From: Ignavibacteriaceae bacterium
GTDB taxonomy: Bacteria; Bacteroidota; Ignavibacteria; Ignavibacteriales; Ignavibacteriaceae
Reading direction: 5' to 3'
Assembly (NCBI GenBank): GCA_035293265.1
Contig: DATDOL010000107.1
Span: forward strand, 1-35,147
Length of the DNA: 35,147 nucleotides
This document shows positions 19,555 to 35,147 of the stretch, in pieces. The stretch's first letter is position 1. Every line of letters starts with the position of its first letter. Under the pieces are notes generated by a model. The model was not told the origin of the DNA. It saw only the letters and a list, made by a program, of their open reading frames with translations, and did no database searches. A program made the translations under genes and the position numbers.

Positions 19555-21066
19555 TTAAGAAGTGATTTTTTCCAGCAGTGAAATTAAATCTTTTTTAGCA
19601 AAAGGTTTTACTAAAAATTCATCTGCGCCGGCTCTATAAAATTGCTGAATCTTATCCCGCATAAATTCACTTGATATTATCAGCAAAGGAATTTTTACAG
19701 CATTATCAGTCTTAAGTCTTTTACAAAGGTCAATCCCCTTATCCCAATAATTCTTTGTGATATCCATTATAATAACTCTAAAGTTATCCTCACCAACAAC
19801 TTTAGAATCAAATCCTCTGTAATTATATACTTTTATCTGATAGCTGCCTTTAAGAAAGGCCTTTAATAATTCGAAAGACTCTCCTGTATCATCAAGCATT
19901 AATATTTTAGCAGCACCATTTGCTTCAACAGTATATTTTTCTTTAATCAAAACACTCTTTTTAGACAGCGGCAATGTAAAAGTAAAAGTTGTTCCGACAC
20001 TCTTTATGCTGTCAACAAGCAATGATCCACCCATTTTTTCGATATATCTTTTAGCTAAAGCCAATCCCAAACCATTGCCTTCAAAATTTCTTCCAACATC
20101 CAGATTTTCCTGGCTGAATGGACGATAAAGATGATCAAGGTATTCGGTTGAAATCCCGATCCCTGTATCCTTAACTTTACAAACAGCGAGGTCTCTCTCC
20201 TTTAGCAACCCGACTTCAACATCTATAAAACCCTGCTGGGTAAACTTGACTGCATTATCCAATAAATTATTAATCACATTTTCGGTGCACTGTAAATCTA
20301 TTTCAACAAGCATACTATCAGCTTCAAAACTTGTTTTAAAGTCCAATTTTTTTTCTGCTGCAATTTTTTTATACGGTGCGACGCAATGATTAAATACATT
20401 TATCAGATCATAGCTTTCAATATTTAACTGGTAATTACCGGCTTCAATCTGGGCAAACTCAAGCATTTGGGTAATACTTTTAAACAACCTTTCGCTGCCT
20501 GAATAAAGATTGTCAAGGTAAACTTTTTCTTCATTGCTGATTCTATCTTTCAGATTTTCCTTAATAATAGTTGCGTATCCGAGAATAATATTAAGCGGAG
20601 TTCGCAGTTCATGTGACAGCACATTCAGAAATGTACTTTTTAATCTTTCGGCTTCTTTACTGGCATCACGGGATTTCTGAATTTCATTTTCTGCAAGTAT
20701 CATTTCTGTATGATCTTCATGCAGAAGTACAGCGTAATTTTTGTTTTGATACATTAACGGGAAAATGCTCGTTCTAAGCAACGGTACTGCGGCTTCTCGA
20801 TTAACAAGAAGACTATCACTGTAATTGTTTATCGAAGCATAGGTTTTATTTTCCAGAGTATCCGTGATTGATTGTATAATTCCATTTCGTCGCAACTCTG
20901 GATCTTTAAAAATAACATATTCCTGGAGTTCTGTCATTGAATAGCCCCACTGAACAATAAATTCGTTATTGATGTAAACTATATAACCTTTTTCATCAAT
21001 GATTTGAACAGGGAACCGCAGTGAGTCGTAAAGCAGTTTAAAATATTTATCAATAGTATCTGACAT
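19555..21066 (-). CDS. Hybrid sensor histidine kinase (PAS, HisKA, HATPase_c, receiver)
   Basis: H-box LSHELRTPLN, N-box NLLDNAVKF, G-boxes DTGIGIS and GNGLGLALAKRY. The C-terminal receiver has LMLDD, IIMDI and KPF. Confidence 0.9.
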   Translation of the reverse strand: MSDTIDKYFKLLYDSLRFPVQIIDEKGYIVYINNEFIVQWGYSMTELQEYVIFKDPELRRNGIIQSITDTLENKTYASINNYSDSLLVNREAAVPLLRTSIFPLMYQNKNYAVLLHEDHTEMILAENEIQKSRDASKEAERLKSTFLNVLSHELRTPLNIILGYATIIKENLKDRISNEEKVYLDNLYSGSERLFKSITQMLEFAQIEAGNYQLNIESYDLINVFNHCVAPYKKIAAEKKLDFKTSFEADSMLVEIDLQCTENVINNLLDNAVKFTQQGFIDVEVGLLKERDLAVCKVKDTGIGISTEYLDHLYRPFSQENLDVGRNFEGNGLGLALAKRYIEKMGGSLLVDSIKSVGTTFTFTLPLSKKSVLIKEKYTVEANGAAKILMLDDTGESFELLKAFLKGSYQIKVYNYRGFDSKVVGEDNFRVIIMDITKNYWDKGIDLCKRLKTDNAVKIPLLIISSEFMRDKIQQFYRAGADEFLVKPFAKKDLISLLEKITS

Positions 21067-21068
21067 TT

Positions 21069-22385
21069 CTAATTCACAGGTAATGAAAATTGAATCGATG
21101 TTCCGTTATTACTTTTCAATAATACAATCTCACCGTTATGACGATCGATAATGCTCTTACAAAGAAACAGACCATAACCACCTTTATGCAAACCAAATGT
21201 ATCAAATGAACCGGCATTAATATGTTTGGGTAAACCAGGACCGTCATCCGACATAATTACACAAATTTTATTGTCTTTTTCAAATGACTTTATAAACATC
21301 GTCACGTCTTTTTTTGCCTCTGCAGAATTTGTAATAAGAAGAACTATCAAATGCTGAATTTGTTCTGAATCATAATCGCACAGCGGTAATGCATTTAATT
21401 CTGTTTTAAAGATAATCGAGCTGTATTTTTTCATAGGAGAAAGATATTTAATGACAGATTGAATTGTTCTATTTAAATCCCCGCTGTCTTTGTTAAGATT
21501 CATAATGGAAGTTTCCAACAGCACCTGCGCATATTTCTGTATGCTGCGGATGCTATCGACAGCAACTTTAGACTTTAGCTTGAGACGGTCAAAAATCAGT
21601 GATTCGGGTGCATCTGTTGTGTCATCAAATTCTAACTGAGTTTTTTCAATCATCCTTAATAAACTTTCTGTTTCAAGAAGTGCAAGATGTACAAGTCCTT
21701 GTAATGATTTTCCAATCTCTGCATCAATGCTGGATTTTAATGTTTTTCTTTCTGCTTCTATCAACTGGGCATTGGCTTCCTGCAAAGCATTATAAGCGGC
21801 TATCTGTCCATCATAAAGTTGTGCATTACGAATTGCTGAAGCTGCCTGCCCGGCTAAAATTTCAAAAGTACCTGTTATTTCCCTGACTTTAACTTTTTGA
21901 AGATGTTTGCTATCGACGTAAATAACACCGATCTTTTTTTCATTGGTTATCAGCGGTGAGCAAAGAATTGTTTGCAGATCTAACTGAAGAATACTTTTTG
22001 TAGGATCGTTGGCTGAATCACTTTGTGCGCCTTCAATAAAAATTGATTGCCCGTTTAAGAAAACGTCTTCTACAACAGTGTTGCTTACTAGAAAAGAACT
22101 TTCCGATAAGGAATGATTCTTAGAATCCATTCCAATTTTATATTCGAGGGTTCCGAGAGAATTTTGAAGAACAATAAATCCGCGTTCTGAGTTTGTAAGT
22201 CTTATGGCATTCTTCAGCACAAGTTCAAGTACATCTTCCAATATTAATGAGCGATTTATTGTATTAACAATATTTAGAATCGCTTCAAGATTTTTTACTC
22301 TTTCGGATGATTCATCTTCTGTGAGAATGTTTTTAATTCCATCATCAATATTCTTTTTAAATTCCGAGAACTTCACCACATTCAC
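21069..22385 (-). CDS. GAF-domain sensor kinase-like protein with HATPase_c (non-canonical dimerisation/His region)
   Basis: The N-terminal GAF-like region reads SERGFIVLQN...IGVIYVDS. The C-terminal ATPase boxes are ITNSAEA, DDGPGLP and GGYGLFLCKSII. I see no clear HExxxP H-box. It lies 2 nt upstream of the hybrid kinase gene. Confidence 0.75.
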   Translation of the reverse strand: MNVVKFSEFKKNIDDGIKNILTEDESSERVKNLEAILNIVNTINRSLILEDVLELVLKNAIRLTNSERGFIVLQNSLGTLEYKIGMDSKNHSLSESSFLVSNTVVEDVFLNGQSIFIEGAQSDSANDPTKSILQLDLQTILCSPLITNEKKIGVIYVDSKHLQKVKVREITGTFEILAGQAASAIRNAQLYDGQIAAYNALQEANAQLIEAERKTLKSSIDAEIGKSLQGLVHLALLETESLLRMIEKTQLEFDDTTDAPESLIFDRLKLKSKVAVDSIRSIQKYAQVLLETSIMNLNKDSGDLNRTIQSVIKYLSPMKKYSSIIFKTELNALPLCDYDSEQIQHLIVLLITNSAEAKKDVTMFIKSFEKDNKICVIMSDDGPGLPKHINAGSFDTFGLHKGGYGLFLCKSIIDRHNGEIVLLKSNNGTSIQFSLPVN

Positions 22386-22434: not shown

Positions 22435-25400
22435 TTAATCTTTTAATAGTTTTAAAGAGATAAACCATTCCCAATCATTCATTTTATTTGACCAGGCTTT
22501 AGCAATTCCTGCTGAGAGTGTTGACTCTAAATTATACCAGTGCTTTAATTTTAAATCCATCTGCGCACCAACATCAATCCAGTAATCTCCCAAATCAGAA
22601 CGTGTTAATAATCCTTGTGAATAAACCGAAAAATCAACATGATTAAGCAGCTGATTTGCGAGCTCAATGTTGCTAAATCTAATTGGTGGAAAAGCGTTTT
22701 CAAACAATATTTTTGCAAATTTCTTAGTCATCATGCTATAGATTGGAATCCCAGGAAATCTGAAAACTTTTCTAAACTGCTTAATTTCGTCATTATCAAT
22801 TCCTCTGTTTCCAAAACCACCAAAATAAAACCTTGCCTGGACCAATTGTTCATTATCCCAGAGATAACCACCCGCAAATTTTACGTGTAAAACGTTATGA
22901 TGTGCAATCCAGGTTGAAAAATCACTGAATTCCGCATAAGTATTTACTGCTGTTTCAAGAGAGTCAAAATTTGTACCGTATAACGTTAATGTATAGTCGA
23001 AATTTGTTCCAAACTCATAATCTGAACTTCCAATGCTTCTACGCAAATTTTTTGAATTTAGATTGGTTGCTAAAACAGAAAAATCCGGCTGAGAAACTCT
23101 AACTAAGTTATCGTTAACAAACTCAACACCTCTATAAACAGTAAGCGTTGATGATTGCTTAATCTTAAGTGGATTATCATACTTCCAGAAATGAGTGTGT
23201 CCAAGTTTATAACTTTCGCCCAGCATACCTCTTTTTCTATTATTAAATAAATCAAAGAATTCAGGTCCATTGTAGCTGACTTCTAAAAATAAAAACTGTT
23301 TAAAATCATACTTAAATTTTAAATGAAACAGCGGATAATCTGGTGTTTCTTTGAGAGGTGAGACACCCACTTCTATATTAAAATCATGAATTAATAACGG
23401 ATCACCGATACGTGTGAAAAATCCAAACACAACCTGGTTTTGAAATCCGCTGACTACCGGCACAAATGAATGAATGTTCAGGTTTGATAAAGCATTGTAT
23501 TCTTTTTCTTTGGTGTAGCCGAATGGATCGCTGGTTTCATAAGAATCAGGCAGCACCCATTTCATAACTTCCGGGTATTTATTAAGAATTTCCTGACCCA
23601 TATAATTTATTGCCGGTAAATAATCTGCCGGCTGGTTTAACAGCATAACCGGAATAAATCCATCAGTTGTATACTCAAAAGCCAGTAATGAATCACGAGA
23701 AATCTCTATTGGTTTAACAAGACCTGTGAGACAATGTGAAATTGCTTTAACGCTCGAACTTTCAAAACTGTATCTATAAATATTTGATACGCCATTTGTA
23801 AACGCGTTCCAGTAAAGGAATTTTCCATCTTCACTCCAGGATGGATTTTCAGGACTTCCGCTGCTTGTTAATGTGCTGAATTCAAAATTTCCACCAGACA
23901 ATAATTTTTTTATATTCGTTAATATTATTGACTGAAGTCCATTAGATCGATGAAACACAGCAGAAAGTTTATCCCCGGTTTGATTCACAGCCAGATTGAA
24001 AATATCATCGCCAGCTTCAAAGGAAGCGATTTGACTAACCTTGTTGTAAGGATAAGGCATAACAACCAAAGTTTTTATTCCCCCGTTAACTTCTACTCCC
24101 CAGAGGTCACGTGTTCCGGGTGAAATACTTAAATCTCCTACCCTGTAATTTTCAAATAATAATTTTTTCTCGCCGGATTGTGTATCTAGTACCCAGATAT
24201 CCCTAAACAATTGATTATTATTTGTTGTAAAGAAAAATAATCCCGTACCTGGATCGAAAGCAGTTGATGCAACCTGGATCATACTCGGTGTTGGTAATGA
24301 TTCAATATCTTTTCTTTCTTCGGACCTGAGATCAAGTTTTTGTATTGAAGCAAGCTGATGCGATTTATGGTAACCGAAAAAAATATTTTGTGTCAGAGCG
24401 TCAAAGTGAGGCTGTGTTACCCATCCAAAGGCTTGATTACCAATTCTTCTTAGCTGAGTTGTTTCAGATTTATTTAATACTTCGAGGTTTATTGATTGAA
24501 ATTCTTTTTCATGAAGTATAAAGTCTTCCCAGGCTTCATCAAAGTCCTTATTAAATACAGTTTCAAATTTATTTTTAAATCCCGGATAAGAATCGTCTGG
24601 TTCAACCTTTATCCACTTAATCAGATTTTCATAACCATATACTATGCTGAGATAACATACAAACCTTGCTCCATAAATATAAGCGAGTGTTTCAAGCAGT
24701 ATTGAATTATGACTTCCAATTGTTTCTATTTCCAGTTGAGAGGAGAAATTTTTCTTTTCAAGCATGAGTGTCCTGAAGTACATTTCATCAAAACTTCCCA
24801 ACAGTCTTCCATAACCACCGCTAAACCAGGTTTCAATAAATACTGCAAAAGATTCTTGATACCATCTTGGAGTATATCTTTTAAAATTAGTTAACAAACT
24901 ATAAACAATTGTTGTCGGCTGAATTTTCTCAGGAGGAACTTTCCCAAAAATTTTACGCAGAAATGCTTCCACTCCGGTAGAATGATCGTTCACAACAATA
25001 TGTACAAGTTCATGACTTAGTAGCCATTGAATTCTGTCATTATAAGGAACAATTTCGTAACCTGGTTCAAGAGGCTCTATTTCTAAACGAATAAAGTTCT
25101 GAGGAACAGTTGTTATGCTGCCAAAGCCAAAATCGTTTACATCATAAGTATTGATAATAATTTTTTCTTTCGGTTTATAATCAAACAAATTCATAAGAGG
25201 TTTTAAAGCATTCTCAGCGTCGCTCAAAATCTTATTAATCAGGTATGCATGATTTTCTCTGTAAACTATTTTAAAATGTTCACTTTCACGTTCATACCAA
25301 TCGGAATCTGTTCGTTCAAAAAAGTGAATTCTAATTTCCTCTTTGCTGGCAGAATTTAACAATTCAACTGCAACTTTTTCAGAAATATTTTTTAAATAGA

Positions 25401-26064
25401 TTTCTACGTTTCCCTGGTCATTATAAACCAGTATATCTTCAATTAATCCTTTTGGCTTCAGATCAGCAAATTCTTTTGATATTACATTCGAATTCATTAT
25501 TCTAAGAATAAAAATACCTCCGCCGGTATTTGCAAGACGAATGTTGATTTGTTCCTTTGTTTTTAAATACAAATATGTATCGTTTTCCAATTCACCAATT
25601 TTTATCTGCATGACTGAATTCACCCCGGGAATTTCATCAGCGAGAGATATTTTATTAGGACTTAAGATAATTATTGCTCTATGATATGCAAGACTAAAAA
25701 GTTCAACAGCTTCATTCATCGACACAAAAATCAATTTATCCATTAAATGGGAAGATCTTTTTAACTGATGAGAAATGAATTGGTTTGTTTCTTTTGAATA
25801 AATAGTTGCAAATGGATTCCTTGAAGTAAAGGACAAAATATTATCGGGAAAATCAATTTCAATTTTTTCTGAATTGTCGGATACTGTTGATACAAGTTTA
25901 AGTGCGTCTGCAATTTTTTCAACAGCTATGTAAATTGTTCCGTTAAAATTATAAGCTAGTATTTGAAATGAATTGTTTTTTATTGTGAATGTTACGCTGG
26001 AAATTGTTTGTGCAGTTAAAAATGCATTCAAGAGAGTGAGGAATAGGAGTGTGTTTTTTAGCAT
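22435..26064 (-). CDS. Large secreted protein: signal peptide, peptidase-MA-like HExxH domain, PD40/TolB-like beta-propeller repeats, putative C-terminal beta-barrel
   Basis: 1209 aa. Signal peptide MLKNTLLFLTLLNAFLTAQ. It has SEHFKIVY, then HELVH (25000-25014), then a downstream WYQESFAVFIETW (gluzincin-like third ligand). PD40-like repeats include SPENPSWSEDGKFLYW...SNIYRY. The C-terminal ~350 aa has an alternating beta-strand pattern with FYFGGFGNRG. Confidence 0.7.
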   Translation of the reverse strand: MLKNTLLFLTLLNAFLTAQTISSVTFTIKNNSFQILAYNFNGTIYIAVEKIADALKLVSTVSDNSEKIEIDFPDNILSFTSRNPFATIYSKETNQFISHQLKRSSHLMDKLIFVSMNEAVELFSLAYHRAIIILSPNKISLADEIPGVNSVMQIKIGELENDTYLYLKTKEQINIRLANTGGGIFILRIMNSNVISKEFADLKPKGLIEDILVYNDQGNVEIYLKNISEKVAVELLNSASKEEIRIHFFERTDSDWYERESEHFKIVYRENHAYLINKILSDAENALKPLMNLFDYKPKEKIIINTYDVNDFGFGSITTVPQNFIRLEIEPLEPGYEIVPYNDRIQWLLSHELVHIVVNDHSTGVEAFLRKIFGKVPPEKIQPTTIVYSLLTNFKRYTPRWYQESFAVFIETWFSGGYGRLLGSFDEMYFRTLMLEKKNFSSQLEIETIGSHNSILLETLAYIYGARFVCYLSIVYGYENLIKWIKVEPDDSYPGFKNKFETVFNKDFDEAWEDFILHEKEFQSINLEVLNKSETTQLRRIGNQAFGWVTQPHFDALTQNIFFGYHKSHQLASIQKLDLRSEERKDIESLPTPSMIQVASTAFDPGTGLFFFTTNNNQLFRDIWVLDTQSGEKKLLFENYRVGDLSISPGTRDLWGVEVNGGIKTLVVMPYPYNKVSQIASFEAGDDIFNLAVNQTGDKLSAVFHRSNGLQSIILTNIKKLLSGGNFEFSTLTSSGSPENPSWSEDGKFLYWNAFTNGVSNIYRYSFESSSVKAISHCLTGLVKPIEISRDSLLAFEYTTDGFIPVMLLNQPADYLPAINYMGQEILNKYPEVMKWVLPDSYETSDPFGYTKEKEYNALSNLNIHSFVPVVSGFQNQVVFGFFTRIGDPLLIHDFNIEVGVSPLKETPDYPLFHLKFKYDFKQFLFLEVSYNGPEFFDLFNNRKRGMLGESYKLGHTHFWKYDNPLKIKQSSTLTVYRGVEFVNDNLVRVSQPDFSVLATNLNSKNLRRSIGSSDYEFGTNFDYTLTLYGTNFDSLETAVNTYAEFSDFSTWIAHHNVLHVKFAGGYLWDNEQLVQARFYFGGFGNRGIDNDEIKQFRKVFRFPGIPIYSMMTKKFAKILFENAFPPIRFSNIELANQLLNHVDFSVYSQGLLTRSDLGDYWIDVGAQMDLKLKHWYNLESTLSAGIAKAWSNKMNDWEWFISLKLLKD

Positions 26065-26159
26065 TTATAAATGAGTAAAACAATAATATCGATTTTAGGT
26101 TTAGTTTTTATTTCTCATTTAAAAGTAAACAAAATTAAAATATCATGTTTAATCGATAT

Positions 26160-26192
26160 AAAAAAAGCCTTCAAATTAAATTTGAAGGCTTT
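26160..26192 (-). terminator. Rho-independent terminator downstream of the repeat-peptide gene
   Basis: Arms 26164-26177 (AAAGCCTTCAAATT) and 26179-26192 (AATTTGAAGGCTTT) are perfectly complementary. Read on the minus strand, the hairpin is followed by a U-run (complement of the A-run 26160-26166). Confidence 0.75.
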
Positions 26193-26231
26193 TAAAGTAG
26201 GCAATCTGGAGAACTAATTTATACCACTTTA

Positions 26232-26717
26232 TTACCGAACCCAACCATAAAGGCTGCCAAGTTCATCAAGCTGTGTCGATGATCTTACCCAACCATATAA
26301 GCTGCCAAGCTCATCAAGCTGTGTTGACGATCTTACCCAACCATAAAGGCTGCCAAGTTCCTCAAGCTGTGTCGATGATCTTACCCAACCATAACGGCTG
26401 CCAAGTTCCTCAAGCTGTGTTGATGATCTTACCCAACCATATAGGCTGCCAAGTTCCTCAAGCTGAGAAGATGCTCTCACCCAACCATAACGACTACCAA
26501 GTTCCTCTAACTGCGTATTGGAACGCTGATCGAGAACTCTGATGTCAGAATGATTTTCCTCAAGAATTGAGGTATTGTTGTGGGATTCAGTAACAGCAGT
26601 TATATTATCCTCTGAAATTCGATATCGGATTGCCTGATCTACATTGTCGGCAATCTGGGCGATTCCAGAAAAGAATAGTCCCCCACAAATAACCAGGGAT
26701 AATATAAGAAAACGCAT
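26232..26717 (-). CDS. Secreted tandem-repeat peptide precursor: signal peptide, ~60-aa unique region, then six 16-aa units SSTQL[E/D]ELGS[L/R]YGWVR
   Basis: The ORF track starts at GTG 26726, but the ATG at 26717 gives MRFLILSLVICGGLFFSGIAQ, a typical signal peptide. Six in-frame 48-nt repeats fill 26235-26522, and the stop follows the last Arg directly. A sigma-54 promoter lies upstream and a terminator downstream, both on this strand. No known family recognised. Confidence 0.75.
   Translation of the reverse strand: MRFLILSLVICGGLFFSGIAQIADNVDQAIRYRISEDNITAVTESHNNTSILEENHSDIRVLDQRSNTQLEELGSRYGWVRASSQLEELGSLYGWVRSSTQLEELGSRYGWVRSSTQLEELGSLYGWVRSSTQLDELGSLYGWVRSSTQLDELGSLYGWVR
26235..26522 (-). 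repeat. Six contiguous 48-bp tandem repeats (coding, in frame)
   Basis: Unit boundaries are 26235, 26283, 26331, 26379, 26427 and 26475. Units are near-identical with scattered substitutions that are mostly synonymous. There are no spacers between units. Confidence 0.95.
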
Positions 26718-26777
26718 AGCGCCCACTCACTTTAATTGATAATGACACACTTGAACTGCGATTACAACTCACCCGAA

Positions 26778-26795
26778 AACTGTGTGCACACAGTT
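26778..26795. promoter_or_regulatory. 18-bp perfect palindrome AACTGTGTGCACACAGTT in the predicted 5' leader of the repeat-peptide gene
   Basis: The sequence equals its own reverse complement. It lies between the sigma-54 promoter (26817-26831) and the start codon (26717). It is comparatively GC-rich for this intergenic region. Confidence 0.5.
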
Positions 26796-26816
26796 CAGTT
26801 TAAGCAGATAAAAAAC

Positions 26817-26831
26817 CCAATGTTTGTGCCA
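26817..26831 (-). promoter_or_regulatory. Sigma-54 (-24/-12) promoter candidate: TGGCAC-AAACA-TTGG
   Basis: The minus-strand sequence TGGCACAAACATTGG matches the TGGCAC-N5-TTGC consensus with correct spacing and one mismatch (final C to G). It sits ~100 nt upstream of the repeat-peptide ATG and next to a sigma-54 activator gene. Confidence 0.65.
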
Positions 26832-27038
26832 TTAGAAAAGAGATAATCAATTGAAATTTTAATCTATTTAGATGATATGTAAGGAAATAATTACCAAAAT
26901 TCTCACGTAATTATTCTAATTTGTAAAAAATAGTTACAGTTTTTTGAAATTACACTAACTATTTCATCAATAACTTAAGTGCGAAAATTTACAAAAAATG
27001 AGGGAATTTGAAATCAATTATTCGAAAAACGAAACAAG

Positions 27039-28424
27039 CTACTTCTGTTTTTCCAACAAAGTATCAAGTTTAGGTCGTGAAATGCCAAGCAATTTTGCTG
27101 TTCGTGTTTTATTTCCCTGCAGCTTTTCCAGAACTTTTTCGGCATAAAATTTCTCTAGTTTCCTCAGGTTTGTCGAGCCATAGTTCACTTCAAATTTTAC
27201 CATATGCCTGTTCTCTTCAAATTGATTTTCATCATGAATAGCTTTGATAGAAACTGATTTAATCAGATTTGAAAAATCATCAAGTGTCAATCTTCCATTA
27301 TCTGAAAGTAAAACAGCACGCTCAATCGCATTTCTTAATTCTCTAACATTTCCCGGCCACGGATATCCTAAAAGAAAATGTTTAATGTCTTTATCAACCT
27401 TCCTGATTGTTCTATTAAACTGCTTATTGAATTCTGTAATAAAATGATTAGCCAGAATGATCACGTCTTCACCACGTTCTCTCAACGGAGGTACGTCAAT
27501 AGTAACAACATTAAGTCTATGGTAAAGATCTCTTCGAAACAAATTTTCTTCCACCATTTGTTCAATATTCCTATTTGTTGCTGAAATTATTCTTGCATTG
27601 ATAGGAATATCCACCACTCCACCTAATCTTTTAATCACTTTTTTTTCAATTGCGCGCAACAGTTTTGTTTGAATATTAGGACTAAGATCACCAATTTCAT
27701 CCAGAAACAGGGTGCCTCTGTCTGCTAATTCAAACAAACCGATTTTTCTGTTCCTTGCACTAGTAAAAGCCCCGGCTTCATAGCCGAATAATTCCGATTC
27801 CAGCAAACTTTCGGGAATAGCTGTGCACACAATATCTATAAATGGAAATTGACCTGTTCTCCCATTGTTATGTATTGCTCGTGCAAAAAGTCCTTTGCCG
27901 GTGCCGGTTTCCCCAAGTAATAACACACTTGCGCCGCTTTTTTCCGAAACCTTTTTTGCAAGATCCACTACACGAACAAATTTATCCGATTCACCTATTA
28001 TGGATTTGAGACCACGTCGATTTATCCCAAATGCACCTATTCGATCGGTTTCGGTAATGTAAGATTTGTTTGAAATAACCTCGGCAAGAAATGAAGTGAA
28101 TTTGAGTATTTCGTATGGAAATATAAAAATATCATGAAATCCTTTTTTAAGAAGAGAAGTAACCTGGAGCGAGTCTCCGTTCCGCATTACAATCAAAAAT
28201 ATATTTGAATTTTCTCTCCTAGTTGCCAGAGCTTTCTTAAGAAATAATGATTCCTGTGATTCGATGTGCAGAACAATAATCTCATTATCAAAAACTTCAA
28301 AATTCTCTTCGAAGCTTACAGAGATAGGCATCCCTTTGAGTTCCAATTGCTTAAGGGCAGATGATACTGAAACTGTATCCTGTGAATCGCTAAATACTTT
28401 TATTTTAATCTGGGAATCGGACAT
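27039..28424 (-). CDS. Sigma-54-dependent transcriptional activator (bEBP, NtrC family) with degenerate N-terminal receiver-like domain
   Basis: AAA+ core: Walker A GETGTGKG, ESELFGYEAGAFTSA (GAFTGA loop, 27756-27773), Walker B LFLDEIGDL, and WPGNVRELRN. The C-terminal Fis-type HTH is TRTAKLLGISRPKL. The preferred start is ATG 28424 (MSDSQIK), 4 nt after the kinase stop. The ORF track begins at 28451. Confidence 0.9.
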   Translation of the reverse strand: MSDSQIKIKVFSDSQDTVSVSSALKQLELKGMPISVSFEENFEVFDNEIIVLHIESQESLFLKKALATRRENSNIFLIVMRNGDSLQVTSLLKKGFHDIFIFPYEILKFTSFLAEVISNKSYITETDRIGAFGINRRGLKSIIGESDKFVRVVDLAKKVSEKSGASVLLLGETGTGKGLFARAIHNNGRTGQFPFIDIVCTAIPESLLESELFGYEAGAFTSARNRKIGLFELADRGTLFLDEIGDLSPNIQTKLLRAIEKKVIKRLGGVVDIPINARIISATNRNIEQMVEENLFRRDLYHRLNVVTIDVPPLRERGEDVIILANHFITEFNKQFNRTIRKVDKDIKHFLLGYPWPGNVRELRNAIERAVLLSDNGRLTLDDFSNLIKSVSIKAIHDENQFEENRHMVKFEVNYGSTNLRKLEKFYAEKVLEKLQGNKTRTAKLLGISRPKLDTLLEKQK

Positions 28425-28428
28425 ATAT

Positions 28429-31400
28429 TTAAACCGAACTGTAAGCCTCAATTTTTTCTAAGGCTAACTTAACATCCTTCTGATTTATATATGAGTTCCT
28501 TAACTGCGGAGATTGAATATTTTCTGCAATAAAATTTATCAATTCCTTTGCATAGATAAAAAAACCTTTAGCTCTGTTAAAATTTCCTCTTTCTATATAG
28601 ATATCAGATTGCATCAATAAAACCTTCCAGGTCAATTCTGTAATGCTCTCATCCTTTATTAATTCATACGCTCTTTCCAGGTATTCAATCGGTGGCGAAA
28701 GTCTTTCAGACTCATAAACCGATGCAATTTTTGCCAGAAAATATTCCCTTTGTGATTCTAATATACTGTTTTGATTAATTATTTCAATAAATACTTTGTC
28801 ATTTATTTCGTTTAACGCTTGCTCATAATTCTTTTGATCAATTAAAACTTTGATAATTGTAAAATTTACTTCGGTATACTTATTTCTTTCGTCCATCTCA
28901 ACAAAAGCGTCTCTGATTGATCTTAATCCACTCACCTCAGGAAATTTATTGTCCAGAATTTTATATAAGGCATCGATATACTTCAAGGAATATTTATGCT
29001 TTGGCAGTAAATTTTTTTCTTCGATTAATTTTCTAAATCGATCTAAGATATCTCTCATTCTATTCATACTACCAATCAGGTTATAGAAATTGCCGTAAAG
29101 GTAAAGCACTTCAGCAAGTTCTTCATCATTCTCATTCGCTTCAAAGATTTGCATCGCTTGCTGCAGGGAATTAAAAACATGCTGATACTCGCATCCTATC
29201 ATGTATACCTCAGCAAGATTGTACAAAACCAGACCCTGATTTATTTGATTACCAAGGCTTAAAAATATTTTAATTGCATTTTTGTAGTTCTCTACCGCTC
29301 TATCAAATTTCTGGTGATTATAATAATAGATTCCTGTATTTAGGAGTATCAATCCTTCCTGTTCAAGGTTTCCAATAGATTCGTTTATATCCGATGCCCT
29401 GTTCCAATGTTCTTCTGCTTTTGAATGGATTCCTAAAATATTGAATATGTTTCCTACATTGACTTCAACTCCTGCAACGCGCCGTGGCAATCCTGCCTGT
29501 TTATAATTTTCAATGGCGAACATAAACTCTGTAAGAGCAGAATGAAGATCATTATTCTTATATATATAGCACATCCCAAGCAGGTTGTGACAGCGGCCTC
29601 TGAGTTCAAACGATAATTTTTTATCCTTTAAAAGTGATTTACTTATTCTCGAAGCTTCGTCATATATTTTTTGTTCAAATTCAGCATAAGCCATCTCTAC
29701 AAATATTTTATGTTTCAGGGTTACGTCGACTTTCCGTTTCAGCAATTCATTCAGCATTTTTTTAGCTTCATCAAATTTACCAACGTTAAAAAGTGAACTG
29801 CTTTTCAAAATTTGAATTTCAGTCTGAACCTTATCATCAAGATTTATTCCCTCTAAAGAATTTATAACCTCTAATGCTGATTGATAATCACTCATTTTAT
29901 AATATACATCGCAAAGTTTTATTTTAACATCGGTTTTCTTTATACCCCTGAGTGGTAATCCGGCTAAATGTTCCAATATTTTTTTCATATAAGAATATGC
30001 TGAATGTTTTTCAACATCTTCAATTTCTATGCACATCGTTTCATAACACAAATCATATTTTCCTGCAAGCTCATAATGTCTGGCTAATTCACTTCTATTA
30101 AAATATTGCAGATTTTTTTTGATTCTTTCCGCAAGCACCAGGTGAAGCCCGGTCTTATTTTTAACAGAACTGTATATATGCTTCTTAAATCCATCTGAGG
30201 TTATCAATAACGAGCTGCCTGATGTAAAATGCTGCAGAACATTATAAACCTGAAGTTTGAAAACTATATCAGAAATTTTTTGAAATGGGATGTCAAGTAG
30301 TGCTACAAGTGTGTTCATCTCAATGACAACATCCAAAGCCGAAATAATTTGAACAACTTTTAATTCTGTTTTCGAAAAATTCTTTAATCTATAATCATAA
30401 AGCACTTCATGAGAACTTTTTAATACCCGTATCGCTTCTTCATTTTTATTTATTTCCACTCCGGATGGAAGATGCCTGACGATCCCAAGTAATATTAAAT
30501 CCTTAATAAACGATACTATGCTGCCAGGCAATAAATCAGCGTATTTGACTATGAGATTAATCAATTCTTCCCGGGGAAAGGACGCTGAGTAACTTTGCTT
30601 TATGAATTCTGTGACCTGCACATCGGTAAACGAACTGAGTAAGACATCTCTTACATTATTAATTTCTGTTGATTTGTAACGGTTGTCAGCTGTTTCGGCG
30701 AGAATTATTTTTATGCTGTTTACCTGAAAAATTGGAATGATCGAACTAAGTATTTCAGAGGATAAATCATCAAGCAGGTTGAAGTCATCAATTAATAAAA
30801 TAAACTTAGTCTTTTTAGCAATTAAAGAAATTACCTCCGGCAGCCGAAGTACAAAGCTGGAATCGGATTCATCAGTCAAAGAATTAATTTTTGTAAGTTC
30901 TTCTGTTGAAAGAAAATCATAAACCGATTTTGAAAAAACAATTTCTTTCAAAAGGTATTTAATTAATTTTATCCCGGACTTTCCTTTTTGATTACTGACC
31001 ATAACAGAACCGGGATAAATTTCGTGTACCCTATTCAGTATTGCTGTCTTTCCAGCTCCATCAAATCCTTTTAAAGTAAAAGCCTCACTGCTTGTTTTAT
31101 CATTTATGTAAACAAATAAAATGTTGAGAACATCCGTTCGATCTGAAAATACTTTTGCGGGCAGGAAATCTTTTGTAATCGAGTCATCGACTTCAATTTC
31201 CAAATCACTTAAAACCTGTAATGCGTTTTGAAATCTATCTTCAGGGTTTTTAGCAAGAAGCTTTTTAACAACCTCAATTAGTTCATTTGAATATTTTATA
31301 GTTAGAGGAAAGTCAAATTCATTTTCTAACTTCGATTTATAGATTGCAAGTTCATCCGATGAATTAAAAGGAAACCTGTCATAAATAATCCTGTAAAGCA

Positions 31401-31995
31401 TCATCCCGAGAGAATAAAGATCAACCCTGTGATCATGTTCTTCCTTCTTCAGCAGTTCGGGAGCGATATACTGTGCAGTACCTTTGACATCATTTTTAAG
31501 CTCTTCACTTCCAAGCTGTGCAAATCCAAGATCAATTAATTTAATGACCGGGTTTCCACCGGGGTTTGCGACCAGAATATTTTCGGGTTTCAGATCATAG
31601 TAGATGTAATTTGATTGATGAAGATAATACAAGACTGAGCATATTTGATTTAGTATTATTTTTAATGATAATTCATTCCTTATAAAAACGGATTGAAGCA
31701 GCTCGCTTGATGGAAAATATTCAAGTGTGATGAATGGAACCCCGGATTCAACAGCATCGTTCTCGCTTTTTTCCAGAATTGTTCCAATCTCAAGAGCGCG
31801 AATGATATTCGGATGATCTAGTTTTTTTAAAGTGAAATACTCTCTCCTGAAATATTCTCTTTCAACATCATTTGCCCCGGATGATAAAACTTTTATGGCA
31901 ATTTCAGCATCCATAAACTCAGCGTCTTTACATATGTAAACAGCACTGCGGCCTTGTCCGATTTTTTTAATTATCTCATATCGTTTATTAATCAT
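28429..31995 (-). CDS. Hanks-type Ser/Thr protein kinase fused to a P-loop NTPase (STAND/AAA_16-like) and a long TPR-like helical-repeat C-terminus
   Basis: Kinase motifs: IGQGRSAVY, IAIKVL, YYDLKPENILV (31594-31602 encodes YYD), IDLGFA and YIAPE. Walker A GFDGAGKT lies at 31045-31068, followed by Walker B LLIDDFNLLD. The C-terminal ~550 aa contains repeated TPR-like helical pairs. Its ATG overlaps the OppC-like TGA (ATGA). Confidence 0.85.
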   Translation of the reverse strand: MINKRYEIIKKIGQGRSAVYICKDAEFMDAEIAIKVLSSGANDVEREYFRREYFTLKKLDHPNIIRALEIGTILEKSENDAVESGVPFITLEYFPSSELLQSVFIRNELSLKIILNQICSVLYYLHQSNYIYYDLKPENILVANPGGNPVIKLIDLGFAQLGSEELKNDVKGTAQYIAPELLKKEEHDHRVDLYSLGMMLYRIIYDRFPFNSSDELAIYKSKLENEFDFPLTIKYSNELIEVVKKLLAKNPEDRFQNALQVLSDLEIEVDDSITKDFLPAKVFSDRTDVLNILFVYINDKTSSEAFTLKGFDGAGKTAILNRVHEIYPGSVMVSNQKGKSGIKLIKYLLKEIVFSKSVYDFLSTEELTKINSLTDESDSSFVLRLPEVISLIAKKTKFILLIDDFNLLDDLSSEILSSIIPIFQVNSIKIILAETADNRYKSTEINNVRDVLLSSFTDVQVTEFIKQSYSASFPREELINLIVKYADLLPGSIVSFIKDLILLGIVRHLPSGVEINKNEEAIRVLKSSHEVLYDYRLKNFSKTELKVVQIISALDVVIEMNTLVALLDIPFQKISDIVFKLQVYNVLQHFTSGSSLLITSDGFKKHIYSSVKNKTGLHLVLAERIKKNLQYFNRSELARHYELAGKYDLCYETMCIEIEDVEKHSAYSYMKKILEHLAGLPLRGIKKTDVKIKLCDVYYKMSDYQSALEVINSLEGINLDDKVQTEIQILKSSSLFNVGKFDEAKKMLNELLKRKVDVTLKHKIFVEMAYAEFEQKIYDEASRISKSLLKDKKLSFELRGRCHNLLGMCYIYKNNDLHSALTEFMFAIENYKQAGLPRRVAGVEVNVGNIFNILGIHSKAEEHWNRASDINESIGNLEQEGLILLNTGIYYYNHQKFDRAVENYKNAIKIFLSLGNQINQGLVLYNLAEVYMIGCEYQHVFNSLQQAMQIFEANENDEELAEVLYLYGNFYNLIGSMNRMRDILDRFRKLIEEKNLLPKHKYSLKYIDALYKILDNKFPEVSGLRSIRDAFVEMDERNKYTEVNFTIIKVLIDQKNYEQALNEINDKVFIEIINQNSILESQREYFLAKIASVYESERLSPPIEYLERAYELIKDESITELTWKVLLMQSDIYIERGNFNRAKGFFIYAKELINFIAENIQSPQLRNSYINQKDVKLALEKIEAYSSV

Positions 31996-33281
31996 ATATC
32001 AAGACGCGGATTAAAAAATTTGTTTAATCTTCTTCCAAAATAATTTGCGGAAAAAAGTGTAACGACCAGACAGCCGCCCGGAAATATGATCATCCACCAG
32101 GCTTTTGTGATGTATTCCTGTCCTGACTGTATCATTGCCCCCCATGAAGGATAACTGTCTCCGGTACCTAAACCAAGATAGCTCAGAGCAGATTCTGCAA
32201 GAATAACATTGCTGAATTGAAAAATTAAATTTACAATTACGGGGGCGATGATAACGGGCAATATTTCCCTGAACAAAATTTTATTCGATTTTATTCCGAG
32301 AAGTTTTGAGGTTTGTATATAGTCTTTTTGCTTGAGGGAATTTACTTCTCCTCTTACTATCTTAAATAAACTCATCCATCCTGATATTCCCAGTACAATA
32401 ACTACAGCAAATAATGAACTTGAAAACAATGCAAGAATTAAAACAACCAGGTAAATAACTGGAAATGCCAAAAGTAATTCTGCAAACCTGTTAAGAACCA
32501 TATCAATTAAGCCTCCTTTATAACCTGCAATAAATCCCAGTGTAATACCAAGCAGAAACGAAATAAAGACCGCACCGATTCCAACTAACAAGGATATCCT
32601 TAATCCATAAACTAATCTTGTAAATGTATCTCTGCCGAATTCATCAGTACCGAGAAGAAATGTTTTGGTTGTTACCAAGGGTTCTCTATTATCTTTAATC
32701 AATTTATCGTCCGGAATTTCTTTCATAATATTTTTTTGATGATATAATATTTTATCAGATGTTATAGCACCTATACTGTCGGCGTAAATAATACTTTCAT
32801 TAAATACCTCCCTAAGAATTTTTCTTTTATAAAGCAGGAATTTATTTAAAGAGTTACCCTCAGAACTATCTTCAATTTTCAAATGCAGAACTTTAACTTT
32901 GCTTAATGGAGAAAGGTGTTTGGTTACGCTTAAATTTTTCTGAAAATCCGGGTTCCCTCTTGTAATTATTTGCGCCATTAAAAATGTTATAAGCAGAATT
33001 ATGATAACACCGGATGAAAAATTTAGATTATACTTTAAAATTTTTATCCGCCGGTGATAAACAATCATAATTAATGGAACAAGAATAAAAATTATTAAGG
33101 AAAGCAATGAATCAATAAGTTTAAAATCCAGCAGAGTTAAAGCACCATCGAAATCATTGAACAACAAAGAAAAGTATTTAAACCATAAAACTGCCAGTTC
33201 AGTCAACCTCGTAAATTGCAGTAAAATAATTAGCAGCCAAATTGCTGAAGTGAACTGCCATATTTTTAATTTAAATTTCAT
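31992..33281 (-). CDS. ABC transporter permease, OppC/DppC type, with an N-terminal extension
   Basis: LGTDEFGRDTFTRLVYGLRISL and the BPD-transporter EAA-like loop (ESALSYLGLG) are present. At 429 aa it is clearly longer than a canonical OppC, with extra hydrophobic segments at the N-terminus. Confidence 0.85.
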   Translation of the reverse strand: MKFKLKIWQFTSAIWLLIILLQFTRLTELAVLWFKYFSLLFNDFDGALTLLDFKLIDSLLSLIIFILVPLIMIVYHRRIKILKYNLNFSSGVIIILLITFLMAQIITRGNPDFQKNLSVTKHLSPLSKVKVLHLKIEDSSEGNSLNKFLLYKRKILREVFNESIIYADSIGAITSDKILYHQKNIMKEIPDDKLIKDNREPLVTTKTFLLGTDEFGRDTFTRLVYGLRISLLVGIGAVFISFLLGITLGFIAGYKGGLIDMVLNRFAELLLAFPVIYLVVLILALFSSSLFAVVIVLGISGWMSLFKIVRGEVNSLKQKDYIQTSKLLGIKSNKILFREILPVIIAPVIVNLIFQFSNVILAESALSYLGLGTGDSYPSWGAMIQSGQEYITKAWWMIIFPGGCLVVTLFSANYFGRRLNKFFNPRLDI

Positions 33282-34264
33282 ATCACATTTCCCCGAAGCA
33301 GTCTTTTATCAATTTTTAGTTTAAGAAGATCGGCAATAAAATTAGTGAGTATCATTAAAAGTCCGGCAGCAAAAGTACAGCCGATTATAAGAGGATAATC
33401 CCTGGTTAAAATTGAATCAATTGTCAGTCTTCCCATTCCCGGCAAGCTAAAAATAACTTCAGTAATAAGCGTTCCGCCTAAAAGTATTCCTAATTCAATT
33501 CCGGCAACAGAAATAAACGGACCAATTGCATTTGGAATTACATGCTTCCTAAGAATTGTGTTTTCATTTAATCCATTTGCTCTCAGCTGCACAATAAAAG
33601 TTTGGTGATAAATATCTTCCAGGTTATCCCTCAGATACCGATAAAATAAGGCGATTCCGGCTATCGATAAAGTTATCAACGGAAGAATAAGATGGTGAAT
33701 TTTATCAAGAAGTTTTTCAAAATAATTTAATGAATCATAATCGAGTGAAGTAAAACCAGAAGTTGGAAACAAATCTACCTGGACAGCAAGCAGATAAATC
33801 AGCAGAACACCAATTACAAACGCAGGTGTGCTGTAAAAAATCAGCGAGAGGTTGGAAATTAAATTATCGGTATTTTTATTTTGTTTTTGAATAGTGTAAA
33901 CAGCTAAATAATAACTCACGATAATCTGAACAAGGAAACTGATTGCGGCAATCACAAGCGTGAAGGAAAGAAATTCCCACACAACCGAAGTCACCGGCAT
34001 CCGGTAATTGTAAGATATGCCTAAATCTCCTTTAATTAAGTTAGCGACAAAGCTTAAGTACTGCTCGGGAAGCGGATCATTCAGTTTGAAGTCCTCGGCA
34101 ACTTTTTGTGCTATTTCTGGACTGAGTTCTGGTGAAATAAATTTCTGTGCCGGGTTTCCAGGAGAGATCCTTATTAAAATGAACAGCAGACTAATCAGCA
34201 AAAACAGTGTTATTAAAGAAGAGATTAATCTTTTAATAACTGCTTTACTGAATTTATTATTCAT
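33278..34264 (-). CDS. ABC transporter permease, OppB/DppB type
   Basis: 328 aa. The N-terminus is KRLISSLITLFLLISLLFILIRISPGNP. Also present are DPLPEQYLSFV..L.GDLGISY and the EAA-loop region. A 4-nt overlap joins it to the OppC-like gene. Confidence 0.9.
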   Translation of the reverse strand: MNNKFSKAVIKRLISSLITLFLLISLLFILIRISPGNPAQKFISPELSPEIAQKVAEDFKLNDPLPEQYLSFVANLIKGDLGISYNYRMPVTSVVWEFLSFTLVIAAISFLVQIIVSYYLAVYTIQKQNKNTDNLISNLSLIFYSTPAFVIGVLLIYLLAVQVDLFPTSGFTSLDYDSLNYFEKLLDKIHHLILPLITLSIAGIALFYRYLRDNLEDIYHQTFIVQLRANGLNENTILRKHVIPNAIGPFISVAGIELGILLGGTLITEVIFSLPGMGRLTIDSILTRDYPLIIGCTFAAGLLMILTNFIADLLKLKIDKRLLRGNVI

Positions 34265-34270
34265 AAATTT

Positions 34271-35147
34271 TTAATCGCTGATTTTCCATTCCCAGCAATG
34301 TGTGATTGAACCTAGTGGAGTTATGTGTATGTTTTTAATTCTTTTATTATATACTGTAATATTAGGGATCCAGTATAAAAAAGTTACCGGTTGATCATTA
34401 TGAATTATTTCCTGGAATTTAAAGTACAAATCTTTTTTTCTTTTGTCGGATATTTTTTGTTCCAATTCATTAATTATATCGTCCGCTTGTTTATTCTGAT
34501 AACTAACAAAATTCAACGGGGTCATTTCCAGGTCCGAATACCAGTAAGACTTAAGCTCAACAGGAATAGGGATATACCAGGCTGCCATCCAGGCATCCAT
34601 TTTCTTTTCATACAGGTGATCTATAAATGAACCCATTTCAAGATTAACAATTTTCATTTCTATGCCAATAGAAGCAAGATTATTTTTTATGATAGTTGAA
34701 GCATAATTTCTAAGCGGATTGCCGGACGGAAAATATAATGTAAATCTAAACTCTGTATTATTTTTATCTAAAATTCCATTATTATTGGTATCCTTCCAGT
34801 CTTCTGCTGCAAGAAGTTTTTTTGCCGTTTCGGTATTATACTGATATGCTTTTATTTCCGGGTTAAAATATCTTTTAAAAATTTTTGAAACGGGGCTAAC
34901 TGCTATCTCACCGTAATTCAGCAAATACTCTTCAAGAATTTCCTGATTGTTAATTGCATGCGAAAGTGCAATTCTGACATTTTTATTTCCGAAAAGTTTG
35001 TGCAGTATGATTTTATTTTCTTTAGTGAATAATTCCGGATCAATATTATTCCAACCGATATAATCATACTCTCTTCCCACAACTGAAACAATATTAAGCG
35101 ATTGGTTCTTTCTCATATCCTCAATGTCCTCGGTTTTAACAAGTTCC
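34271..35147 (-). CDS. ABC transporter substrate-binding protein, family 5 (peptide/nickel, OppA/DppA-like); N-terminal part lies outside the window
   Basis: The frame stays open to the window edge, upstream of Met 35116. VRIALSHAINNQEILEE, YQYNTETAKKLLAAEDWKD.NNNGILDK and the FTLYF pattern match SBP_bac_5. Confidence 0.85.
   Translation of the reverse strand, partial: ELVKTEDIEDMRKNQSLNIVSVVGREYDYIGWNNIDPELFTKENKIILHKLFGNKNVRIALSHAINNQEILEEYLLNYGEIAVSPVSKIFKRYFNPEIKAYQYNTETAKKLLAAEDWKDTNNNGILDKNNTEFRFTLYFPSGNPLRNYASTIIKNNLASIGIEMKIVNLEMGSFIDHLYEKKMDAWMAAWYIPIPVELKSYWYSDLEMTPLNFVSYQNKQADDIINELEQKISDKRKKDLYFKFQEIIHNDQPVTFLYWIPNITVYNKRIKNIHITPLGSITHCWEWKISD

Follow-up and report, generated by a model that had tools for sequence, protein, structure and literature searches.

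The 35,147-nt stretch of Ignavibacteriaceae DNA analysed here (contig DATDOL010000107.1; hereafter the window) carries, from position 19555 to its end, a minus-strand locus that encodes a tandem-repeat peptide precursor, an oligopeptide (Opp)-type importer, a STAND-type Ser/Thr kinase and a sigma-54 activator. On balance, we lean towards the view that this locus is a self-reinforcing import-and-sense peptide signalling module, which would follow the logic of the RRNPP systems with non-homologous parts. The precursor would be made from a sigma-54 promoter with upstream palindromes, the probable sites of the adjacent bacterial enhancer-binding protein (bEBP), and the predicted Sec-targeted product would bear six functionally equivalent units in this window and, elsewhere, as many as 21. 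The units would be cut after the spacer S-x-S-Q-L-E-E-L-G and after the terminal Arg/Lys, giving the heptapeptide S-[RL]-Y-G-W-V-R, and the neighbouring HExxH/propeller/barrel protein may cut the precursor and perhaps move the peptide over the outer membrane. Thereafter, the Opp-type ATP-binding cassette (ABC) importer would bring the peptide back in, and it would bind the tetratricopeptide repeat (TPR) sensor of the STAND kinase, a step that co-diversification supports. Binding would open the kinase's nucleotide-binding oligomerization domain (NOD), as in other STAND proteins (PMC4381067), and activate the kinase. The kinase would then phosphorylate the Asp-less pseudo-receiver of the bEBP, for which the invariant S68 or S21 are candidate sites, and relief of the AAA+ inhibition would yield more precursor, closing a positive feedback. 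Since the peptide tail was different in almost every species, the signal would be species-specific.

For comparison, one genome per species was scanned with the kinase alignment. Kinase relatives occurred in 162 species-level genomes, and 80 loci were kept, all from Ignavibacteriales; the counts of kinase neighbours given below are limited to loci long enough for the feature in question, and related loci are cited by L numbers. The precursor has a Sec signal peptide and a conserved pro-region (NVDQAIRYRI), followed by six units of 16 aa, and its open reading frame (ORF) ends exactly with the last unit. Tandem Repeats Finder (TRF) described the array by a period of 48 nt, 5.6 copies and 89% matches. 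In the window the unit reads S-x-x-Q-L-[ED]-E-L-G + S-[RL]-Y-G-W-V-R, with the tail SRYGWVR in units 1 and 3 and SLYGWVR in units 2, 4, 5 and 6; by analogy with what was proposed for Phr duplications, the presence of two variants may represent an intermediate state. Across genomes the unit becomes S-x-S-Q-L-[ED]-E-L-G followed by [SGAT]-[RK]-[YFW]-x-[WFYL]-x-[RK]. No Pfam or NCBIfam family matched the precursor, and its 81 homologues, all from Ignavibacteria or metagenomes, carry no annotation. The copy number ranged from 2 to 21 and was 12-21 in long-read assemblies. Many of the short-read contigs stopped within the array, while the long-read assemblies reached these higher numbers (seen at contig ends of L014, L020, L043, L081, L082 and others, and at L070:15226-16443). 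The short-read copy numbers, possibly including the six of the window, may be underestimates.

Codon differences between copies of the same array comprised 4468 synonymous and 1113 non-synonymous changes (about 4:1). The non-synonymous ones concentrated at spacer positions 2, 3, 6 and 7, and Q4, L8, G9 and all seven tail positions almost never varied. Given the synonymous excess and the almost fixed tail, the pattern is one of purifying selection on the predicted peptide and not of simple DNA homogenisation. Furthermore, 49 tail forms were found among 57 genomes (a MAG of Ignavibacterium album, L071, has the module with GRFGWTK), and the tail was hardly variable inside any one genome; comparison shows the tail to be the selected element of the predicted product.

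The sequence-only reading had taken the whole 16-mer as that product, which now appears too long. The tail form SRYGWAK (as PHF-SRYGWAK) is also the extreme C-terminus of an unrelated lipoprotein family of ~185 aa, with 29 clusters that all belong to Ignavibacteria. Because the same tail closes this separate family, the functional product is probably the C-terminal heptapeptide, with the spacer as a processing signal. A sigma-54 promoter preceded 8 of 12 lipoprotein genes, and the full palindrome geometry was present at one of them. The shared motif could instead be an envelope sorting or anchoring tag, in which case the tandem protein would be a structural or surface repeat protein. The tandem protein and the lipoproteins do both end in the motif, and bacteria commonly have dedicated C-terminal sorting signals whose processing enzymes are encoded nearby. 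However, a tag gives no reason for 6-21 internal repeats, lipoprotein-type loci such as L059 are without the HExxH protein, and the element found to co-vary with the tail is a cytoplasmic TPR domain. We consider this explanation very improbable.

The lipoproteins form a second precursor type. They carry the lipobox GCS, end in PHFSRYGWAK and are each followed by a cytoplasmic TPR protein of ~410 aa (L059:15265-22149; L072:15137 and 16308; L033:15325-15885; L085:13928-15864). In L059 three or four of these cassettes stand in a row, and their layout recalls that of Rap-Phr cassettes. The 410-aa protein, which is optional in the module, is a generic TPR_12 protein with no helix-turn-helix (HTH) domain. 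Searches gave it no particular likeness to the kinase TPR domain (E = 0.6) or, above generic TPR scores, to Rap.

A link between the peptide and the kinase came from the analysis of close genome pairs, which replaced Mantel tests. For each pair, the divergence of the TPR domain (aa 641-1188) was divided by that of the kinase domain plus NOD (aa 1-640). The ratio was 1.19-4.96 in pairs with different tails vs 0.90-1.17 in pairs with the same tail. In 16 independent close pairs, all 12 different-tail ratios exceeded all four same-tail ratios (Spearman rho 0.55, p = 0.026); by a hand calculation, complete separation would occur by chance in 1 of 1820 cases, and the margin at the boundary was narrow (1.19 vs 1.17). 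The stretch aa 801-960 was the best-conserved part of the TPR domain in same-tail pairs (0.07-0.12 divergence) and was among the most changed when the tails differed. Over the region of approximately aa 800-1080, different-tail pairs reached a mean divergence of 0.29-0.54 and a maximum of 0.88. The pattern was clearest in L033 and L036, which shared 94-100% DNA identity over 23.5 kb save for two islands, one covering the TPR region (66-82%) and the other the repeat array with an adjoining remnant of the large-protein gene (72-74%). The islands lie ~3 kb apart, and the DNA between them, with the AAA+ and C-terminal parts of the activator, the promoter and the lipoprotein gene, was 97-100% identical. 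The lipoprotein (98.9%) and the adjoining 410-aa TPR protein (97.6%) were unchanged in this pair, and so was the binding protein, at 96%. A bounded TPR divergence island was also observed in four further different-tail pairs and in neither of two same-tail pairs. These comparisons show that the tail and the kinase TPR domain diversify together, which is the signature of a co-evolving receptor-ligand pair. The repeat had earlier been expected to co-vary with both the TPR domain and the binding protein; as far as the TPR domain is concerned, the ratios and the bounded islands bear this out.

Rapid tail diversification would also suit a secreted bioactive peptide of a bacteriocin-like or interference type, with the importer used for immunity or recycling and the kinase-bEBP pair for auto-induction. 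Some eukaryotic antimicrobial peptides typically come from multi-copy precursors with anionic spacers and aromatic or basic cores, and the permeases showed distant similarity (NCBIfam) to Sap-type peptide transporters. However, bacteriocins are as a rule much longer than a 7-mer, and the net charge of the 16-mer is negative. The module contains no conserved immunity, exporter or modification gene. In addition, co-diversification with a cytoplasmic sensor domain points to self-recognition, and this explanation seems rather improbable to us. A multi-core cluster for peptides made on ribosomes and modified after translation (RiPPs) was rejected as well: no modifying enzyme of the radical SAM, YcaO, LanM/KC, ATP-grasp or a similar type was found among the conserved module genes, and matches to lanthionine-synthetase models of NCBIfam were limited to the kinase domain of the STAND kinase.

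The upstream region of the precursor gene was examined in the window and in the orthologues. TGGCACaaacaTTGG was the sole exact match to TGGCAC-N5-TTGS in the window. It reads TGGCAC-N5-TTGG and has GG as its -12 element, where orthologues have TTGC, TTGT or TTGG. The -24/-12 element could be aligned and was conserved in orthologues; of 60 precursor upstream regions, 40 contained it. Strict matches numbered 53 over the 1.52 Mb of related loci, 36 of them upstream of a tandem precursor, and the motif is nearly specific to precursor genes. Further upstream, TGTAA-N7-TTACA had one match in the window vs 0.07 expected. In orthologues this palindrome is found ~107 bp, and a second one (GTAAT-N-ATTAC) ~63 bp, upstream of the -24 element at fixed spacing. 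The palindromes are likely binding sites of the adjacent bEBP. The sigma-54 promoter that had been proposed from the window letters is thus upheld by its conservation and by the palindromes at fixed spacing, and comparison shows a predicted sigma-54-dependent precursor gene with conserved upstream sites.

The GAFT[NSDQG]A loop, which contacts sigma-54, was present in 70 of 70 bEBP orthologues. The N-terminal domain of the bEBP is receiver-like; it gave no match to Pfam Response_reg at E <= 0.01. At its phospho-acceptor position (H62 here) the orthologues have Q in 51 cases, K in 10 and otherwise H or N. Asp occurred in 0 of the 70, in agreement with the earlier claim that the receiver lacks its phospho-Asp. 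In the same orthologues the beta5 Lys is replaced by Phe, and S21, S68, G104, P112 and E114 showed no variation. In the NCBIfam AtoC match, residue 51 of the protein meets profile position 44, an offset that puts H62 at AtoC position 55; D55 is the phosphorylation site of AtoC. The comparison shows that the predicted bEBP cannot be phosphorylated on Asp. No hydrophobic segment was found in this protein. Its start is probably the ATG at 28424 and not the TTG at 28451, because orthologues align only from the former, four bases past the kinase stop codon.

The kinase has the composition of a STAND protein: an N-terminal Hanks kinase as effector (approximately aa 1-275), a P-loop NOD with Walker A and Walker B motifs (approximately aa 276-640) and a C-terminal TPR_12 sensor (approximately aa 641-1188). 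The AAA_16 match of the NOD scored 32.5 bits, just under the cut-off of 32.6. K35, D134, K136, N139, DLG and APE were invariant, and the HRD motif reads YYD. In the NOD, the Walker A motif GxxGxGK (G310, G313, G315, K316) and the Walker B residue D403 were invariant. The kinase retains all catalytic residues. It contains three hydrophobic 19-mers, all within the NOD (415-433, 488-506, 547-569), which we read as core beta-strands and not as membrane helices, so that the kinase would be cytoplasmic.

The gene neighbourhood was retained in the related loci. The order ATPases / binding protein-OppB-like permease-OppC-like permease-kinase-bEBP-precursor-large protein-(TPR protein)-GAF kinase-hybrid kinase recurred across Ignavibacteriales, and it was maintained although the precursors of these genomes share just 38-68% identity. 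The same order was found around three divergent precursor homologues (39-54% identical). Near the kinase we found the bEBP in 70/73 loci, the OppC-like permease in 75/77, the OppB-like permease in 73/75, the ABC ATPases in 62/64, the binding protein in 54/69, the GAF kinase in 36/41 and the hybrid kinase in 33/40. The large protein followed 3' of the tandem precursor in 34/42 loci as scored, and in 37 after allowing for rearranged loci. The precursor was found in essentially all loci that reached far enough, and in nearly all of them it lay 1.7 kb downstream of the kinase gene. The co-conservation of the whole module, which had been named as a point to check, was thus found, and the comparison shows that the predicted gene cluster forms one unit. 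Housekeeping genes flank the related loci (Nfu, Ogt, a tRNA-editing protein, AlaRS) and make up the rest of the window (CysRS, RluD-like, LspA, IleRS, PNP, Pta and glycogen phosphorylase). As judged from these neighbourhoods, the locus is chromosomal and vertically conserved. A mobile-element reading was rejected because of the housekeeping genes on the flanks.

The kinase would also fit an anti-phage STAND kinase defence system, and the genes could also be unrelated neighbours kept together by synteny. For the defence system, the kinase domain matched the PADLOC models mad6 and PD-T4-6 and the activator matched RtcR-like models. However, these matches span generic kinase and AAA+ domains only, and the locus sits between housekeeping genes and has the vertical conservation described above. 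Against unrelated neighbours, the TPR region and the repeat array form two divergence islands apart from each other, which speaks for a link in function. We regard both possibilities as scarcely credible.

The features of the locus are given in Table 1. The sequence-only reading had proposed a peptide circuit of six parts within 12.7 kb of one strand. Each part was identified in the window, all on the minus strand, as was every large ORF between 19555 and the window end, and together they make up a single chromosomal module. The extent has to be corrected to at least 15.6 kb, since both histidine kinases sit below position 22435, where the module had been taken to start. Because the first five genes overlap or nearly abut, we read those of the binding protein, both permeases, the kinase and the bEBP as one predicted operon.

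Table 1. Positions of the predicted features of the peptide locus in the window (position 1 is the first nucleotide of the 35,147-nt stretch)
Feature	Position	Strand	Basis
C-terminal part of Opp/Dpp-type periplasmic peptide-binding protein	34271..35147	-	SBP_bac_5 2.2e-27, profile positions 177-352 only
OppB-like ABC permease	33278..34264	-	BPD_transp_1 1e-35; six hydrophobic segments
OppC-like ABC permease	31992..33281	-	BPD_transp_1 on residues 245-426
STAND-type Ser/Thr kinase, 1188 aa	28429..31995	-	Pkinase 6.2e-44, AAA_16, TPR_12
Putative peptide-specificity region of kinase TPR domain, ~aa 800-1080	28756..29598	-	divergence islands
Sigma-54 activator (bEBP) with pseudo-receiver N-domain	27039..28451	-	Sigma54_activat 2.3e-62, AAA_lid_14, HTH_8 3.2e-6
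Two candidate activator-binding palindromes	26884..26938	-	TGTAA-N7-TTACA at 26922-26938; imperfect GTAAT-N-ATTAC at ~26884-26894
Predicted sigma-54 -24/-12 promoter TGGCACaaacaTTGG	26817..26831	-	match to TGGCAC-N5-TTGS
Precursor, 161 aa from ATG	26232..26717	-	signal peptide, pro-region, six 16-aa units
Array of six units	26235..26522	-	TRF period 48
Intrinsic terminator 3' of precursor gene	26163..26193	-	14-bp stem, then T run
Exported 1209-aa protein	22435..26064	-	HExxH, TolB-like propeller, C-terminal beta-barrel
Cytoplasmic GAF-HATPase sensor kinase	21069..22385	-	GAF_2, HATPase_c; no hydrophobic segment
Cytoplasmic hybrid histidine kinase (PAS-HisKA-HATPase-REC)	19555..21066	-	domain library matches; no hydrophobic segment

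With regard to import, the best NCBIfam match of the binding protein was Opp4A. Its gene is cut by the window end, and full-length orthologues in related loci have 552-567 aa. Two ABC ATPase genes are placed divergently in those loci, beyond (upstream of) the binding-protein gene. The OppC-like permease has an N-terminal extension of ~200 aa with three extra hydrophobic segments in residues 13-110, and its gene overlaps each neighbouring gene by 4 nt. The extension gave a weak partial Mantel signal with the peptide tail (r = 0.12). The binding-protein gene was missing between the ATPases and the first permease in L011, L023, L024, L028, L032, L037 and L038, and likewise in L048, L061, L064, L082, L084 and L086; the permeases and ATPases remain there. 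Where it is missing, the importer must rely on a binding protein from another locus or function in some other way.

The large HExxH protein is a candidate factor for processing or export. Its homologues, more than 426 in number, are either unnamed or labelled 'TolB family', and HELVH was invariant in 28 sequences. The AlphaFold2 model (pLDDT 79.4) contained beta domains at the N-terminus, a helical domain with the HExxH, a propeller and, at the C-terminus, a barrel of ~16-18 long strands. The modelled propeller matched TolB at 7e-9, and propeller matches filled the fold-search list for the whole model. When the HExxH domain was modelled by itself, at low confidence (pLDDT 55.8), the top 50 PDB matches were all M1 gluzincins with TM scores of only 0.4-0.5, a no more than suggestive likeness. 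This domain had no Pfam match even at E <= 10 and none in NCBIfam, and when the large protein and its HExxH domain were searched against PDB by sequence and by profile, only a weak propeller match and noise came back. The domains of the large protein are conserved, evolve slowly and do not co-vary with the peptide tail, which fits recognition of the conserved spacer but is not proof of it. A short form of ~965-990 aa (vs ~1210 aa for the long form) also exists; it is without the first 250 aa, and the 410-aa TPR gene regularly comes after it. Loci with long and short forms are L002:10460-14764, L003:10623-15014 and L024:15876-20198.

Several of our observations do not sit easily with the signalling module. 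The partial Mantel correlations over all genomes were weak and partly non-specific (binding protein 0.14, TPR 0.17-0.18, bEBP AAA+ 0.19). The pair L001/L035 had a large TPR change with only a Ser-to-Ala change in the tail. The expected co-variation with the binding protein did not hold, as this protein showed no co-divergence with the tail and was absent from 15/69 loci. L061 (10001-14261) and L064 (10001-14180) have no bEBP, and the kinase gene is there followed directly by the precursor gene, which has neither the sigma-54 promoter nor the palindrome upstream; the kinase must use another output in these two loci. Neither a third zinc ligand nor a GxMEN motif was identified in the large protein, so that the peptidase assignment is a weak one, resting on the invariant HExxH and on weak fold matches of a low-confidence model. 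Furthermore, the peptide may never leave the periplasm.

The last point leads to an autocrine or periplasmic loop, in which the precursor is cut in the periplasm and the same cell re-imports the peptide with no cell-to-cell signalling. Such a loop would report the state of the cell's own envelope proteolysis or secretion, or act as a bistable switch. It would be in keeping with a precursor that has a Sec signal alone, with the translational coupling of importer, kinase and activator in one operon, and with the positive-feedback architecture, which suits a switch. On the other hand, an internal reporter has no obvious need of species-specific tails and a co-diversifying receptor, and the modelled C-terminal barrel of the adjacent large protein could serve export. 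We take the autocrine loop to be unlikely.

The import-and-sense module resembles the RRNPP(A) systems (Rap-Phr, NprR-NprX, PlcR-PapR, PrgX, Rgg, AimR) in several respects. A Sec-exported propeptide is encoded near its receptor, and the active peptide is short and C-terminal (PapR7 and the Phr penta- and hexapeptides there, a predicted heptapeptide here). An Opp-type importer and a cytoplasmic TPR receptor would be shared too, to judge here from gene adjacency and from a kinase in which no transmembrane segment is apparent, and receptor and peptide diversify together, in our case the TPR domain and the tail. Multi-copy propeptides have been documented for Rap, NprR, AimR and PlcR (PMC9765709, PMC5199041). 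Unlike in RRNPP(A) systems, where the receptor is a one-component HTH regulator or a Rap phosphatase, the putative receptor here is a Hanks Ser/Thr kinase with a NOD, the host belongs to Ignavibacteria and has a double membrane, the output would be a sigma-54 activator, up to 21 copies are present and the importer lies within the module. The kinase matched no RRNPP-specific family in Pfam or NCBIfam, and its NOD-TPR part found RapJ among PDB sequences at E = 0.004, weaker than generic TPR proteins (Pins 1.4e-7); the putative receptor appears not to be homologous to RRNPP proteins. A large RRNPP survey covered Firmicutes genomes only (PMC10075063).

Other known systems share single aspects of the locus. 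In STAND proteins it is the repeat sensor domain that binds the inducer (PMC4381067). With M. tuberculosis PknK and E. coli MalT, both STAND proteins, the kinase has in common an effector domain, a NOD with conserved Walker A/B motifs and a TPR-like sensor. However, its presumed ligand would be a genome-encoded peptide rather than a metabolite and its target the pseudo-receiver of a bEBP, and no close sequence relationship to PknK or MalT was detected beyond the common domains. Secreted tandem short peptides with conserved spacers that finish in basic residues are also known from yeast alpha-factor and other Kex2-processed repeat proteins, a parallel noted before (PMC5199041), and in fungal repeat pheromone precursors the copies are identical within a gene and divergent between species (PMC7329392). 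The alpha-factor system is eukaryotic, with Kex2 processing in the Golgi and sensing by a surface G protein-coupled receptor, and it shows no homology to the present one, so that this is an analogy only. Density signalling in double-membrane bacteria also leads from an extracellular signal to transcription through a bEBP, as in Vibrio (LuxO) and in Myxococcus (SasS/SasR), where the A-signal consists of peptides and amino acids from proteolysis. LuxO and SasR are phospho-Asp regulators fed by histidine kinases, whereas the acceptor Asp is absent here and the partner would be a Ser/Thr kinase. Our literature searches found no description of the present system.

Peptide signalling through cytoplasmic receptors is regarded as a trait of Gram-positive Firmicutes, and double-membrane bacteria are thought to use small molecules. 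It is quite possible, although we would not call it probable, that the locus is the first import-and-sense peptide pheromone system outside Firmicutes, with a STAND kinase as receptor, an Asp-less sigma-54 activator, a precursor of 6-21 copies and co-evolution of the peptide with a TPR pocket. If so, the import-and-sense design would have evolved independently in a double-membrane phylum, a STAND kinase could serve as a peptide receptor, and a sigma-54 activator without its phospho-Asp could be driven by Ser/Thr phosphorylation instead. The 49 or more natural peptide/TPR pairs would be a resource for the evolution of receptor specificity and possibly a source of orthogonal signalling parts. 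The module would also make social behaviour testable in Ignavibacteria, a little-studied group that abounds in sediments, soils and bioreactors.

Some loci departed from the common arrangement. L085 (10001-13585, 19879-23472) encodes a pair of paralogous STAND kinases at a distance of 6 kb, and one of the two has no adjoining transporter or activator. In L005 (L005:6628-12408) and L006, a divergent precursor with three degenerate units lies beside a large-protein homologue of 564 aa; the alignment covers approximately aa 255-750 of the large protein, with the putative peptidase domain and most of the propeller. A TPR protein of 1019 aa is encoded nearby, and no kinase, transporter or activator was found there.

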